Assembly: GCA_964417855.1 (NCBI GenBank) | Contig: CAYQJB010000001.1 | Span: forward strand, 102,709-166,708 | DNA from: an uncultured Candidatus Saccharibacteria bacterium | GTDB lineage: Bacteria > Patescibacteriota > Minisyncoccia > Phycocordibacterales > CAIZLB01 | Direction: 5' to 3' | DNA length: 64,000 nucleotides | In this document: positions 8,154 through 48,148 of the stretch, piece by piece | Layout of the letters: each line of letters begins with the position of its first letter | How positions within the stretch are numbered: position 1 is the first letter of the stretch | Position numbers and translations under genes: made by a program | The notes under the pieces: generated by a model | Databases searched by the model: none | What the model saw: only the letters and a program-made list of their open reading frames with translations | What the model was told of the DNA's origin: nothing

Positions 8154-8157
8154 CTTA

Positions 8158-8191
8158 TTTGGGGTCAGGCACCATGGTGCCTGACCCCAAA
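8158..8191. repeat. GC-rich palindromic element (tttggggtcaggcac catg gtgcctgaccccaaa), likely bidirectional terminator. Member of a repeated family (second copy 15749..15803)
   Basis: Perfect 15-bp stem between convergent grx and ung. The same 14-nt arm recurs at 15749. Confidence 0.6.
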
Positions 8192-8193
8192 TA

Positions 8194-8954: not shown

Positions 8955-9041
8955 GGAGGATTGGATGAGCGGCTTAAATCAACAGTTTACTAAACTGTCG
9001 GCTTGGAAACAGGCCCGTGAGTTCGAATCTCACATCCTCCG
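8955..9041 (+). tRNA. Class II (long variable arm, Ser-type) tRNA with apparent anticodon ACU. Possible pseudo-tRNA or atypical tRNA-Ser
   Basis: Acceptor GGAGGAT/ATCCTCC. D stem GAT/ATC. Anticodon stem ACAGT/ACTGT with loop TTACTAA. Variable arm GGCTTG-GAAA-CAGGCC. T-arm GTGAGTTCGAATCTCAC. CCA not encoded. Confidence 0.65.
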
Positions 9042-9184
9042 CAAAATAATGGGCATAGCCCATATATTTTGCGAGAGTGCAGAATAGGTTGCGAAGCGAC
9101 CGTAATTCTGCCTCCGCAAGTCATATTACCCTTAAAATTTGACACCCTCTGTATCTTTGTTAAACTATAGGTACAAATAGACTT

Positions 9185-19410: not shown

Positions 19411-19523
19411 ATAGTTTCTGGTTAGTATGAATTATAGAATGAAGAAAAATCAGTGCATCTCACTGATTTAAATCCGTTTTTTATTATATACCTCTCCAAA
19501 AAATATTCAAGAAAAACCTTTTG

Positions 19524-19596
19524 TGCGAGCACTAGGATTCGAACCTAGGACCGGTCGTGTATAAGACGACTGCTCTACCAACTGAGCTATGCTCGC
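19524..19596 (-). tRNA. tRNA with anticodon UAU (AUA-decoding tRNA-Ile2 type)
   Basis: GCGAGCA acceptor. D-arm TAGCTCAGTTGGTAGAGC. Anticodon stem GTCGT/ACGAC with loop CTTATAC. T-arm CTAGGTTCGAATCCTAG. No CCA. Confidence 0.8.
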
Positions 19597-39745: not shown

Positions 39746-40462
39746 TTAATTTTCTTTTACCTCAGCAGTAGCTGATGATGAAATTCTTGCCTTCTTGAAT
39801 GAAGAAAGAGCCTTGATAGCAGCTTGTGCATTGTTTAGTTTGTTTTTTGTACCTGAACGAAGCTTTGCATTGATGTCAGTAATACCAGCAAGAACGATAA
39901 CGTCACGAACTGAACTACCAGCAACAACTCCCTTTCCTAGTGCGGGCATCATTTCTACTCTTGCACTACAGTACTTAGACACAACTGCATGAGGAATACT
40001 TCCTGTCTTTGTTAGAGGGATGGTAATAAGCTTACTTTTTGCATCTCTAACAGCTTTTTCAACAGCAAGTGATGTATCAGTTCCTTTTCCTGTCCCAACA
40101 CCAACCTTACCCTTTCTGTCCCCAATAACAACTGCTACAGCAAAGCTGAAACGTCTACCTCCAGCAGAAACTCTAGTAACACGTCTGATGTCAATCATTT
40201 TTTGATCAAACTCAGGCTTAGCTCTAGGTTCGCGTCTTGGTCCTCCTCTTCTGTCTGGTCCTCCACGTCCTCTGGGTGCTCCACCTGGGCCTCCTGGTCC
40301 ACGTGATCCTGCGCCACCACGAGCTCCCCCTCTAGAAAAAGTTCCTCTTGTGTCTGCAGGTCTTGCAGCTGGAGCTGTTGCTGATGGAGCAGTTGTAGCT
40401 GCTACTGGAGTTACCGCTGCTTCTGTTCCCGCTGTTGTATTGTTGTTAAGTGTATCGTTCAT
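39746..40462 (-). CDS. rpsE: 30S ribosomal protein S5 with about 90-aa Arg/Gly/Pro-rich N-terminal extension
   Basis: Core IDIRRVTRVSAGGRRFSFAVAVVIGDRKGKVGVGTGK. Confidence 0.9.
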   Translation of the reverse strand: MNDTLNNNTTAGTEAAVTPVAATTAPSATAPAARPADTRGTFSRGGARGGAGSRGPGGPGGAPRGRGGPDRRGGPRREPRAKPEFDQKMIDIRRVTRVSAGGRRFSFAVAVVIGDRKGKVGVGTGKGTDTSLAVEKAVRDAKSKLITIPLTKTGSIPHAVVSKYCSARVEMMPALGKGVVAGSSVRDVIVLAGITDINAKLRSGTKNKLNNAQAAIKALSSFKKARISSSATAEVKEN

Positions 40463-40468
40463 ATTATA

Positions 40469-40816
40469 TTAAAATTCTAATCCGCCTTGACGTGCTCCGT
40501 CAGCTAATGAACGGATACGTCCTGTGTAATTAAATCCACCTCTATCGAAAACCACCTTTGAAACTCCAGCAGCCTTTCCAAGCTTTGCAATTTCTGTACC
40601 TACATTTAATGAAGAATCAGTTTTTGTTCCCTTCTTATCCTTAAGTGAAGAAGCTGCAGCTAAAGTCTTACCATTTTCATCATCAATTAACTGTGCATAA
40701 ATATATGCATTTGATTTGAATACAGATAAACGAGGTCGCTCTGCACTACCAATAACCTTTGAGCGTATTCGCTTTCTTCGTCTGTCTCTTGATGATAATA
40801 TAATTTTAGTTTTCAT
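40469..40816 (-). CDS. rplR: 50S ribosomal protein L18
   Basis: RKRIRSKV...RPRLSVFKSNAYIYAQLIDD. Confidence 0.9.
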   Translation of the reverse strand: MKTKIILSSRDRRRKRIRSKVIGSAERPRLSVFKSNAYIYAQLIDDENGKTLAAASSLKDKKGTKTDSSLNVGTEIAKLGKAAGVSKVVFDRGGFNYTGRIRSLADGARQGGLEF

Positions 40817-45414: not shown

Positions 45415-45765
45415 TTATTTCTTTTTAGCTGGAGCTGCTGTTGTCGCCTTAGCTGACTTAGCTGCGGTTATTTCTGACTGCTTCTTTGCAGCATCAAGTT
45501 CCTTCTGCATCTTTCCTCCATGTCTAACGAACTTTCTTGTTGGTGAAAATTCTCCCAATCTGTGACCTACCATTTCCTCTGTTACAAGAACTTCAACATG
45601 AGTCTTTCCATTGTGTACACCGAAGATAAACCCAACCATTTCTGGTGAGATTTGACTTCCTCTGTACCAAGTCTTAATTACCCCAGTTGTCTGAGGGTTT
45701 TTGCCTTCTATCTTCTTTAGAAGTTTTGGGGCTATATATGGTCCTTTTTTTAGTGATCTTGTCAT
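45415..45765 (-). CDS. rpsS: 30S ribosomal protein S19
   Basis: [20 protein letters not shown]...[17 protein letters not shown]. Confidence 0.9.
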
Positions 45766-46020
45766 TGTTTGTGTGAAAATAATAGCCCGTGTTGAGCCAG
45801 TTAACGTATACTAGCAAAAATAATGAAAGTGTCAACCACTAAAAGGCTTATTTTAGGCATTTCGATACTATTATTGTAAAGATTATGGTCTAATTTGGGT
45901 TTTTGACTAAAATGGCCAAATTTTGATGTTTTTTTTGCCGTTTTTTTTACTGTTTCTATTAACAATAATTTATAGAAAATTAGTAATTATATATAAATTA
46001 TTCATCATAAGGGGGAGTGA

Positions 46021-46049
46021 AGGCTCGGCGGGGTAACCCCGCCGAGCCT
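46021..46049. repeat. GC-rich perfect palindrome (aggctcggcgggg taa ccccgccgagcct), copy 1 of 2, immediately downstream of paralog A
   Basis: 13-bp stem, 3-nt loop. Identical stem at 46637..46665. Confidence 0.7.
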
Positions 46050-46063
46050 AAATAAATTGCCGA

Positions 46064-46504
46064 TCAAGATACGCTTTTAAACGCTTCGATTTCAGCTTCT
46101 GCAATAATGAACCGCTGCTCATAACAACGAAGTCTTTCCCACATTGGAAGTAATACAATTGAAGGATGGTCCTCTCTAAATTGCTGCCAAAGTGGAGTAA
46201 ATTCCCAAAAATGGAGCAGGTGCTGAATCTCCTTTAGAGTTACCCCATTTTCCTTATAAAACTTTTCTACAATCAGATTTTGCTTTACCTGATCTCTAGT
46301 CCCAGAGAGCTTTTGACTTGCAAAATAAAGGTTTTCTAACATCTCAACTTTTTTCCTAATTGGCACTTCAAGATCAAGGATGCAGGAATCAGCTTCTTGA
46401 ATATTAACCCAAAAAGCAAGTCTTTCCTCCGGAATACTGTTAACATCCCAAATCTGATACAAAACACGAAAAAATCGAGCTTTAGACATATCTAAAAATT
46501 TCAT
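46064..46504 (-). CDS. Hypothetical Trp-rich protein, paralog A of a tandem pair inserted between rpsS and rplB
   Basis: Shares LYQIW.V / ER.AF / EKFY.E.GV / LP..ERL..YEQR(F/Y)I motifs with 46696..47121 (about 30% identity, judged by eye). Confidence 0.5.
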   Translation of the reverse strand: MKFLDMSKARFFRVLYQIWDVNSIPEERLAFWVNIQEADSCILDLEVPIRKKVEMLENLYFASQKLSGTRDQVKQNLIVEKFYKENGVTLKEIQHLLHFWEFTPLWQQFREDHPSIVLLPMWERLRCYEQRFIIAEAEIEAFKSVS

Positions 46505-46636
46505 ATTTTTGAGGGTGAGAGGTTGATACTTTGGATTTGACCCGTTTGGTCGATAGAAGGAGCAGATTTTGCACTCCGTACTTTATTTTATAACGCCATG
46601 CAGTTTTGTCAAAATTTAAAAGACTCATATATTAAA

Positions 46637-46665
46637 AGGCTCGGCGGGGTTCCCCCGCCGAGCCT
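46637..46665. repeat. GC-rich perfect palindrome (aggctcggcgggg ttc ccccgccgagcct), copy 2 of 2, immediately downstream of paralog B
   Basis: Same 13-bp stem as copy 1, different loop. Confidence 0.7.
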
Positions 46666-46695
46666 TTGCTAAAACTTCAAATCTTAGTATACAAA

Positions 46696-47121
46696 TCACG
46701 ATAATCCGTCGGCAAACTCACTGTAGATATAACGCTGTTCAAACCTTTCCAGACGCTCCAAAGGAGGCAGATCTGCAACAGATACGTAATCCAAGAGGTA
46801 GTTCTTGAAAGGAAGGTTAGACTCCCAATAACGCAAGCGGAAAGCTGGATCTGGTCCAACACCATGTTCCCAGTAGAACTTGTCGCTAAAGAGCCCCCTT
46901 TCACTGGTATAGCTACCCCAATCTTCTTCACCAATATGAAAAGCTTCCAATGATTGTAACTGAATCTCCTTTGGCAAGCCTTCAATGTTTCCTCCTACAG
47001 GCCCAAAAAATTTATCGAGAAAAGCCATTCTTTCGTCTGGTGTTGGGCCGACTCCCCAAATTTGATAAAGATTATTCAAGTACTCATTGCGCCCGGTCTT
47101 TACTGAACTTAACTCTTTCAT
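46696..47121 (-). CDS. Hypothetical Trp-rich protein, paralog B
   Basis: See paralog A. The overlapping 46677..46985 ORF is in another frame and rejected. Confidence 0.5.
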   Translation of the reverse strand: MKELSSVKTGRNEYLNNLYQIWGVGPTPDERMAFLDKFFGPVGGNIEGLPKEIQLQSLEAFHIGEEDWGSYTSERGLFSDKFYWEHGVGPDPAFRLRYWESNLPFKNYLLDYVSVADLPPLERLERFEQRYIYSEFADGLS

Positions 47122-47246
47122 AGTTTTGTGTTTTTGAGGTTTGTGTACTTATTCAGCGGTCAGATGACCTATGTAAGGATGCTATTTGCACTCCTACTTT
47201 AGACTACACTCCTTAAAAATTTTGTCAAAAACAGACAAACAAAAAA

Positions 47247-47263
47247 CCCGCATTTCTGCGGGG
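47247..47263 (-). terminator. Intrinsic terminator directly after rplB on the minus strand (cccgca tttc tgcggg + T-run)
   Basis: Hairpin with A6 (plus) = U6 (minus) downstream of the rplB stop. Confidence 0.6.
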
Positions 47264-47305
47264 TTTTTGTTATTAAGACCAGCCTTCTGCTAATCAAACA
47301 AAATA

Positions 47306-48148
47306 TTATCTTCTCTTTCCTACCTTTCTTCTTGTAACAATATGTTTGTTTGAGTACTTCTTTGCGCGTCTTGATTTTTGTCCCTTTCCAGTTGGCTTTC
47401 CGTAGATAGAAATAGCACGTCTTCGTCCTCTTCCTTGTCTACCTTCTCCTCCTCCATGGGGGTGATCAACTGGGTTCATGGCAGTACCTCTAACTGTAGG
47501 TCTGATACCACGGTGTCTACTAGCTCCAGCTTTTCCGATATTTTGCAAACGATTTTCATCATTTGAAACCTCTCCAATTGAAGCCCATGCAGTTTCTAGT
47601 ATCTTTCTAACTTCAGTTGATGGCATCTTAACAAGGGCGTAACCCGCGTCATGAGCAATAACTTCAGCAAAAGAACCAGCTGAACGAACAAGCTTAGCAC
47701 CTCCTTCAAATTTCAATTCTATGTTGTAAACAAATGTTCCAACAGGAATGTTCTTTAATGGAAGTCTGTTACCTGCTTTTACTTCAACCTTCTCGCCAAC
47801 GATAAACTTATCTCCAACTTTTAGTGACTTTGGCAAAACGACGTATCGCTTTTCTCCATCAGTATAAGTTACGAGAGAAATAAATGATGTACGGTTTGGA
47901 TCGTATTCAATTGTTTCGATCTTTGCAGGAATATCTTTCTTGTCATACTTAAAGTCTATTTGACGATAAAGTCTTTTGTGACCTCCACCTTTGTGTCTAG
48001 TTGTAATACGTCCAGTGTTGTTACGTCCTGATCCACGTCTAAACCCGTTTGTAAGGGGCTTGTATGGCTCGTCAGTAGTAAGAATCTGAGCGTAATTAAC
48101 GATAGCCATGTTTCGGCGTGAGGGGCTTGTTGGGTTAAATCTTTTCAT
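47306..48148 (-). CDS. rplB: 50S ribosomal protein L2
   Basis: VDHPHGGGEGRQGRGR and other L2 motifs. Confidence 0.9.
   Translation of the reverse strand: MKRFNPTSPSRRNMAIVNYAQILTTDEPYKPLTNGFRRGSGRNNTGRITTRHKGGGHKRLYRQIDFKYDKKDIPAKIETIEYDPNRTSFISLVTYTDGEKRYVVLPKSLKVGDKFIVGEKVEVKAGNRLPLKNIPVGTFVYNIELKFEGGAKLVRSAGSFAEVIAHDAGYALVKMPSTEVRKILETAWASIGEVSNDENRLQNIGKAGASRHRGIRPTVRGTAMNPVDHPHGGGEGRQGRGRRRAISIYGKPTGKGQKSRRAKKYSNKHIVTRRKVGKRR

Follow-up and report, generated by a model that had tools for sequence, protein, structure and literature searches.

The S10-spc-alpha cluster of ribosomal protein genes is a textbook example of conserved gene order and is normally the most conserved in bacteria. 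The canonical S10 operon, as in Escherichia coli, contains the genes in the order rpsJ-rplC-rplD-rplW-rplB-rpsS-rplV and onward. Chromosomal hotspots, in which accessory genes lie between conserved core genes, are a general concept of comparative genomics, and Y1 transposases are the enzyme class that mobilises repetitive extragenic palindromic (REP) elements. A 64,000-nucleotide stretch from an uncultured Candidatus Saccharibacteria bacterium (assembly GCA_964417855.1, contig CAYQJB010000001.1, positions 102,709 to 166,708; hereafter the window) contains an S10 operon whose gene order is canonical on both sides of a break and whose other junctions are tight. The bacterium is a Parcubacteria/Paceibacteria-like member of the Patescibacteria. 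At the break, 1540 bp separate rplB (ribosomal protein L2) from rpsS (S19) and carry two small paralogous genes, paralog A and paralog B, each followed by a palindromic hairpin. In this clade, unlike in the canonical operon, a terminator and a promoter interrupt the genes at rplB|rpsS. The cassette of two genes is a lineage-specific occupant of this clade-wide break in the S10 cluster. The whole arrangement is probably explained by a split S10 operon with a permissive spacer, in which A and B form autonomous units and their terminator hairpins have been homogenised.

The relatives used for comparison are 80 GTDB species-genome loci obtained by a search with the L2 protein of the window. All 80 loci belong to Patescibacteria of the Parcubacteria/Paceibacteria kind, with L2 identities of 62-78%. 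The gap between the L2 and S19 genes is measurable in 54 loci; its median is 881 bp, and it is longer than 200 bp in 47 of them and longer than 500 bp in 42. The fetched DNA of the other 26 loci contains no rpsS; some of these contigs stop shortly past rplB, and about 10 of the 26 extend for nearly 4 kb downstream of rplB without rpsS. The gaps L3|L4, L4|L23, L23|L2, S19|L22, L22|S3 and S3|L16 have medians of at most 68 bp and are almost never longer than 200 bp. Of the junctions in the cluster, rplB|rpsS is the single broken one. The junction rpsJ|rplC (S10|L3) is a second, weaker variable point, with a gap of more than 200 bp in 14 of 60 relatives (maximum 2139 bp), and is tight in the window.

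In 54 of 74 relatives, the 150 nt that follow rplB contain a perfect hairpin with a stem of 6 bp or more. The promoter-like pattern TTGAC[AT]-N15-19-TAnnnT was found within 200 nt upstream of rpsS in 41 of the 54 loci, often as ...ATTTGCTAGTAT as in the window, and is present even where the gap is only about 100-150 bp. The clade-wide occurrence of the gap, the hairpin and the promoter points to an S10 cluster composed of two transcription units separated by a permissive spacer with fast turnover of its content. The initial annotation had described the locus as an unusual insertion into an otherwise intact S10 operon, which is not supported given the frequency of long gaps among the measurable Paceibacteria relatives. 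It had also postulated a new promoter for rpsS; the promoter is indeed present (45835..45808), but the terminator/promoter pair is clade-wide, and the promoter is therefore not new. No description of the rplB|rpsS break in Patescibacteria was found in full-text literature searches. RplB serves solely as a marker in PMC4508563.

The gaps of the relatives contain 86 open reading frames of at least 75 aa, which lie on both strands and fall into 65 sequence clusters. Those with Pfam matches include genes for DUF3298 (8), diacylglycerol kinase (4), MazF (3), HicA, IS200-like Y1 transposase (3-4) and RplJ-RplL (3), as well as PurE, PurC, orotidine monophosphate (OMP) decarboxylase, HIT and YkuD, whereas more than half of the reading frames have no Pfam match. 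In the closest GTDB relative (L020), a terminator of the same kind and the same rpsS promoter enclose an unrelated reading frame; as judged by eye, the N-terminus of its product is hydrophobic and signal-peptide-like. The gap resembles a chromosomal hotspot in its fixed rplB/rpsS flanks and its highly variable content, including transposases and toxin genes. It differs in that it lies inside the S10-spc-alpha cluster, also holds housekeeping genes (rplJ-rplL, purE/purC), and has no recombinase or transfer RNA (tRNA) anchor that could be found.

Two kinds of gap content were located individually. The gene rplJ (L10) lies between rplB and rpsS in three relatives (L026, 5805-6672; L033, 5641-6523; L047, 2647-3132), with rplL (L7/L12) beside it in two of them; a mechanosensitive-channel-like gene is also present at these loci. 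An IS200-like Y1 transposase of 221-244 aa is encoded on the minus strand of the gap in L073 (4890-5561), L076 (2888-3622), L078 (4849-5514) and L084 (4880-5569).

The features that the initial annotation had listed for the cassette were all recovered on the minus strand at the positions it gave, including a terminator belonging to rplB itself (Table 1). On this layout, rplB is the last gene of a predicted upstream rpsJ-rplB transcription unit. A hairpin homologous to its terminator also lies 3' of rplB in the relatives L007 and L220. The paralog B promoter is kept in the B-type ortholog of L220 and aligns with the A-type promoters, the paralog A promoter is kept in L007 and L221, and the rpsS promoter is nearly identical in L007, L221 and L020. 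Paralog A begins at Met6 in public gene calls, but the alignment with its ortholog P0002 begins at Met1. The public protein P0003, identical to B, carries the name 'hypothetical protein'. The GC content of the cassette is the same as that of its flanks; the AT-rich spacer next to the rpsS promoter has a GC content of about 0.32, with shorter counterparts in L007 and L221.

Table 1. Features of the interval from rplB to rpsS (window coordinates); promoters, leaders and transcription units are predictions.
Feature	Position	Strand	Basis or remark
rplB (ribosomal protein L2)	47306..48148	minus	280-aa open reading frame; Ribosomal_L2_N/C Pfam domains on identical public gene
Intrinsic terminator of the rpsJ-rplB unit, CCCGCAGAAATGCGGG then TTTTTTGTTT T-run	47247..47262	minus	terminator scan
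Paralog B promoter: TTGACA (47228..47223), 16-nt spacer, TAGTCT (47206..47201)	47201..47228	minus	sequence reading
B 5' leader: GGAGTGCAAATAGCATCC first (5' hairpin 47194..47177), then CA-rich tract without Shine-Dalgarno	47122..47194	minus	
Paralog B, 141 aa, B-type family member	46696..47121	minus	identical public protein P0003
B 3' hairpin, 15-bp stem including 13-bp AGGCTCGGCGGGG arm, then TTTTAAT	46635..46667	minus	
Paralog A promoter: TTGACA-16-TAAAAT, consensus matches 11/12	46585..46612	minus	promoter scan
A 5' leader: GGAGTGCAAAATCTGCTCC first (5' hairpin 46577..46559), then CA-rich tract without Shine-Dalgarno	46505..46577	minus	
Paralog A, 146 aa, A-type family member	46064..46504	minus	
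A 3' hairpin, perfect 13-bp stem, no U-tract, C-rich tract next	46021..46049	minus	
AT-rich spacer, no convincing gene	45836..46020 (~185 bp)	minus	sole open reading frame listed: 54 aa, TTG start
Promoter of rpsS and onward: TTGACA-16-TAGTAT, TG upstream	45808..45835	minus	promoter scan
rpsS leader: small conserved hairpin TGGCTCAACACGGGCTA (45799..45783) and conserved GGGCTATTATTTT	45766..45807	minus	
rpsS (S19), first gene of the downstream unit	45415..45765	minus	

Alignment of the A and B units revealed conservation of their non-coding control elements but not of the coding DNA. Common to both are the hairpin stems, TTTTGACAAAA in the -35 region and, where transcription is predicted to start, TAAAGTA(C)GGAGTGCAAA. 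The repeated unit is composed of promoter, leader, gene and hairpin; the promoter and leader had been missed by the initial annotation. The predicted transcripts of both genes open with a short GGAG...CUCC hairpin, which is followed by a CA-rich leader that lacks a Shine-Dalgarno sequence. These elements suggest strong independent expression of A and B, with the 5'-terminal hairpin as a putative mRNA-stabilising or regulatory element and the long GC-rich 3' hairpin as a putative terminator or 3'-end protector.

Comparison of the cassette region with Rfam at E-values up to 10 gave solely sub-threshold terminator look-alikes. A riboswitch-like RNA in the A and B leaders was considered and rejected: folding of the whole leaders gave z of about -0.6, and the part common to both is the short 5' hairpin, which is not found in L221.

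A small conserved hairpin, TGGCTC-loop-GGGCTA, and the conserved GGGCTATTATTTT were also observed directly 3' of the rpsS promoter in the window (45783-45807), L007 (900-938), L221 (960-983) and L020 (5835-5860); they could form a regulatory leader of the unit from S19 onward. A third unit in L220 (645-936) combines a TTGACT promoter with a leader hairpin, TAGAGCAAAACTGCTCTTA, like those of the A and B leaders and drives an unrelated 65-aa reading frame, which suggests that the promoter/leader module is reused.

The rplB-rpsS spacer of four near relatives contains a family member, in combinations that vary among them. In L007, which is a different species, the end of rplB and the terminator are followed by the same promoter and start-site sequence, a single A-type gene (P0002, 55% identical to A and in the same position), a palindrome and the same rpsS promoter. 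In L220, the end of rplB and the terminator are followed by the same promoter and leader, the B-type gene P0004 without a palindrome, and then the unrelated 65-aa reading frame. In L221, an unrelated gene lies upstream, and the same promoter precedes a short form (P0008), a palindrome and the rpsS promoter. On a further contig, the short form P0010 lies 176 bp after rplB. No family member was found at the rplB-rpsS locus of any of the 80 GTDB relatives, and tblastn of the window detected no third member.

Distant members are located away from ribosomal genes, beside dprA, a VTT-domain gene or unrelated hypothetical genes, and no conserved partner gene was found next to them. At the loci that were read, each distant member occupies a separate intergenic space and is generally preceded by a promoter-like site and followed by a terminator hairpin.

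A and B are real paralogs, as had been proposed, with 27% identity over 131 aa (E=1e-14). Their codon-aligned DNA is 47% identical, and third codon positions, at 36% identity, are saturated. Neither protein matched a Pfam family, in agreement with the initial view of an unrecognised family, and no match above the curated threshold was obtained in Pfam, PHROGs, PADLOC or PDB; no structural match was found for the family. A word-indexed protein search returned identical public proteins and one 55% relative, P0002, and nothing else. An exhaustive HMMER search of 1.84 billion representative proteins gave 17 matches with E<1e-3, one of which is a spurious repeat protein. Peptide-pattern scans of genome and metagenome contigs for more family loci matched unrelated stretches alone, and no matches to the family were detected in phage records or IMG/VR, so a phage origin was rejected. 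In bit scores, A groups with P0002 and B with P0004, and B is closer to the wider family than to A; the A/B duplication therefore predates these species, and the A-type and B-type proteins are, as judged by these scores, old paralog lineages.

The family members are 83-153 aa long, mostly with a pI of 4.4-5.7, contain many Trp, Tyr and Phe residues and lack a signal peptide. The two halves of the protein are homologous: the N-terminal FYRIWGVG...ERL.FW corresponds to the C-terminal EKFYWEHGV...RLRYF (hhalign probability 89.8%, E=1.8e-6), and three proteins (P0008, P0010 and P0014) are short forms with a single repeat. The AlphaFold2 model of B, built from 21 sequences, contains eight helices (pLDDT 89.3, pTM 0.78), with a helix, a GVGP loop and a second helix present twice. 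The family of A and B comprises small, acidic, aromatic-rich, all-helical proteins of about 125-150 aa, predicted to be cytoplasmic, in which a helix-loop-helix unit is duplicated.

The motif FYRIWGVG...(E/K)(K/R)L.FW resembles the h-x-x-h-x-G-h-G signature of helix-hairpin-helix (HhH) domains such as the Pol X fingers (PF10391) and IMS_HHH (PF11798). Four members gave sub-threshold Pfam matches to PF10391 and PF11798 at the GVG motif (12-18 bits against cut-offs of 24-30), and hhalign against a Pol lambda fingers segment gave a probability of 12.7%. These scores do not support an assignment of A and B to the HhH proteins, which is at most a tentative lead.

The comparisons show that the A and B genes are conserved and coding, are predicted to fold, and have the sequence architecture of self-contained units, located in a spacer that accepts any kind of cargo. 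The patchy spread, the fast turnover, the short forms and the non-ribosomal contexts of distant members make a dispensable accessory role likelier than a core translation role. Our best guess for A and B is a dispensable accessory protein, strongly expressed and binding to another macromolecule, rather than a component of the ribosome.

The palindrome AGGCTCGGCGGGG-NNN-CCCCGCCGAGCCT has exactly two copies in the window (46021..46049 and 46637..46665) and none in 100 shuffles; tolerating up to 3 mismatches adds no further copy. The two copies agree at 26 of 26 stem positions, as the initial annotation had noticed; the loops differ, and the B stem extends to 15 bp. The hairpins lie 15 nt (A) and 29 nt (B) past the stop codons. 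They resemble intrinsic terminators in their GC-rich perfect stems of 13-15 bp, their position after the stop codon and their compensatory upkeep, and they differ from ordinary independent terminators in having identical stems. The B hairpin is followed by TTTTAAT; the A hairpin has no U-tract, a further difference, and is followed by the C-rich TCACTCCCCC. Neither hairpin is listed by the consensus terminator scan. The window contains 12 perfect hairpins of 10-19 bp, all intergenic and often between convergent genes. Eleven of them lie within about 60 nt of a gene 3' end, and all are unique save the A/B pair. This distribution indicates that long perfect hairpins are the normal form of terminator in this genome.

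The orthologous hairpins behind the A-type gene of L007 and the short form of L221 keep the structure with two-sided compensatory changes. At stem pair 5, both window copies have U-A where L007 and L221 have C-G; at stem pair 13, L007 has A-U. The compensatory changes imply that the structure, not the sequence, is kept. Since both window copies share the derived U-A pair, homogenisation within the genome is indicated rather than REP-like or MITE-like (miniature inverted-repeat transposable element) spread. The simplest reading is that the two palindromes were homogenised, or one copied from the other, within this lineage. Among the explanations the initial annotation had offered for the identical hairpins, gene conversion is accordingly favoured and mobile spread is not, with both copies behind the paralogs and no Y1 transposase in the window. 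Behind the B-type ortholog of L220 the hairpin is missing, which would make the B copy a secondary acquisition.

In place of the U-tract, the hairpins of the A-type genes and of the short form in L221 are followed by a C-rich, G-poor tract: TCACTCCCCC in the window (46010-46020), TTCCACCCAC in L007 (about 810-825) and TCAACCCCCTC in L221 (about 880-895). This tract might be a Rho-utilisation-type site. With the U-tract missing and the C-rich tract next to it, the A hairpin, like its orthologs, may work as a terminator of a non-canonical type, protect the 3' end or belong to a Rho-dependent site.

Members of the subfamily next to dprA have in common a homologous terminator that ends in ...CGCCGAGCTTTTTCTTTT (L012, 1635-1670; L015, 570-600; L016, 1463-1500). 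The 8-mer GCTCGGCG of the window palindrome is also the terminator stem behind distant members in L012 and L015. The stem type AGGCYCGGCGGG...CCCGCCGRGCC forms an ordinary A-tract/stem/T-tract terminator in more than 120 unrelated high-GC metagenome contigs among the matches listed, and, as it is so commonplace there, the shared 8-mer is likely a product of convergence.

The favoured explanation combines these observations as follows. In this Paceibacteria-like lineage, the S10 cluster would consist of two units, one ending at the terminator after rplB and the other starting at the conserved promoter before rpsS. The DNA between them could take up genes without disturbing ribosomal gene expression and would therefore carry ever-changing cargo across the clade; in this genome and a few near relatives, it holds members of a rare undescribed family. 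Each gene would form an insulated one-gene unit with a near-consensus sigma-70 promoter, a start-site sequence folding into a 5'-terminal hairpin, an unstructured CA-rich leader and a long GC hairpin at the 3' end. The palindromes would be the usual terminator hairpins of the genome and not mobile elements, with selection acting on their structure, and the two copies may have been made alike by gene conversion or by copying of the A terminator behind B.

Several points weigh against this explanation. The palindrome count covers 64 kb of the genome only. The A hairpin departs from a canonical intrinsic terminator, as neither strand carries a U-tract, and a 29-bp gene-conversion tract is at the short end of the usual range. 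The whole A and B leaders fold no better than shuffled sequence, for which reason no riboswitch-like element is claimed. In L221 the primary sequence is conserved but the 5' hairpin is not kept, so the conserved element could act as a site in the DNA rather than as a structure in the RNA. The promoters, start sites, termination and role of the 5' hairpin of the A and B units were all deduced from the sequence. Finally, the family members of the near relatives lie directly after rplB (L007, L220 and the contig with P0010) or directly before the rpsS promoter (L221), so that some connection with the ribosomal locus is conceivable.

Two alternatives concern the hairpins. Perfectly identical stems beside strongly diverged genes, the IS200-like Y1 transposases in the gaps of four relatives and the absence of a hairpin behind the B-type gene of L220 are what would be expected of REP-like or MITE-like mobile hairpins that had spread independently of the genes and landed behind both paralogs. 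The window palindrome is indeed, like REP elements, a short GC-rich intergenic palindrome with identical copies in one genome. It differs from them in having no more than two copies in 64 kb, each placed behind the 3' end of a paralog at 15-29 nt past the stop codon. In the window, neither a REP-associated tyrosine transposase (RAYT, Y1) nor a conserved flanking tetranucleotide of the GTAG type was found, and tblastn with the Y1 transposase of L073 gave nothing. The element also differs from a MITE, as it is a bare 29-nt hairpin with dissimilar flanks that lacks terminal inverted repeats and a target-site duplication. The A hairpin is moreover orthologous to those of L007 and L221 and evolves by compensatory change like a resident structure, and the other long hairpins of the window are all unique; mobile spread is thus highly improbable. 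Selection on the hairpin sequence itself, if for instance a regulator or the A and B proteins bound it, would account for the fully matching stems despite saturated coding divergence and for the recurrence of GCTCGGCG in the terminator stems of L012 and L015. Against it stand the compensatory pairs of the orthologous hairpins, the unrelated terminators of the members in L008, L017 and L018, the lack of any in L220 and the wide occurrence of the stem type in the unrelated contigs mentioned above, which make it highly improbable.

The remaining alternatives concern the genes. A and B could be translation-linked factors, ribosome-associated or ribosome-regulating, and functionally part of the ribosomal cluster: four near relatives keep a member in the rplB-rpsS spacer, the predicted promoters are strong, and ribosome-bound acidic helical proteins such as L7/L12 are known. 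The retention of the family in this spacer keeps such a role alive at low probability. Its absence from the locus in all 80 GTDB relatives, its rarity overall, the differences in copy number and length even among near relatives, and the unrelated cargo of the same gap elsewhere make it quite unlikely, and the predicted promoters and hairpins would insulate the genes from ribosomal transcription. The patchy distribution, the own promoters and terminators and the contexts of distant members, beside dprA or a VTT-domain gene and not ribosomal genes, likewise argue against a core translation role.

The self-contained units, the patchy distribution, the MazF and HicA toxins and transposases in the gaps of relatives, and the similar promoter/leader module driving the unrelated 65-aa reading frame in L220 are also compatible with a selfish or horizontally mobile cassette (a phage moron, an integron-like cassette or a toxin-antitoxin pair) exploiting a highly expressed, deletion-protected locus. 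This is very unlikely, because the family has no match in phage records, IMG/VR contigs, PHROGs or PADLOC, the GC content matches the flanks and distant members have no conserved partner gene. The window contains no transposase or attC-type site, and no integrase was seen in it, although no search was aimed at integrases. Unlike integron gene cassettes, the A and B genes have their own predicted promoters and no GTTRRRY core sites at the hairpins; unlike a type II toxin-antitoxin system, they are paralogs and not a toxin/antidote pair, each has its own promoter and hairpin, and neither matches a toxin or antitoxin in PADLOC or Pfam. A more ambitious reading is unlikely as well. It would make the rplB|rpsS spacer a dedicated cassette-exchange locus inside the ribosomal superoperon, with a portable TTTTTGACAAAA promoter and a GGAGTGCAAA-type start-site hairpin driving interchangeable small genes, and A and B a strongly expressed protein of new fold acting on the ribosome, on nucleic acids or on the cell that hosts these episymbionts.

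Some other features of the window were recorded. Rfam at the gathering score identified a transfer-messenger RNA (tmRNA) and two tRNAs in the whole window. A tRNA-Ile with anticodon TAT (19523-19596) was called by both ARAGORN and Rfam, and a 'tRNA-Ser(ACT)' (8955-9042), which adjoins a 17-bp hairpin (8156-8193), by ARAGORN only. The region 40000-40600 has a local GC content of 0.49 compared with the window mean of 0.37. A 61-aa S14 gene between rplE and rpsH (L001, 12484-12713; L002, 7623-7808) is called in one public assembly of the species and not in another, which is an annotation difference only.

No new mechanism is yet indicated by the break, the family or the hairpins. The hairpin pair is a clean small example of the concerted evolution of a non-coding structure beside saturated coding divergence, and the A/B family is a protein family with a confidently predicted fold and no detectable sequence or structural relatives. 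The class-wide hypervariable L2|S19 break bears on binning and on marker-gene synteny assumptions, as well as on the organisation of ribosomal gene expression in Patescibacteria, and it is a good place to seek lineage-specific accessory genes in reduced genomes.

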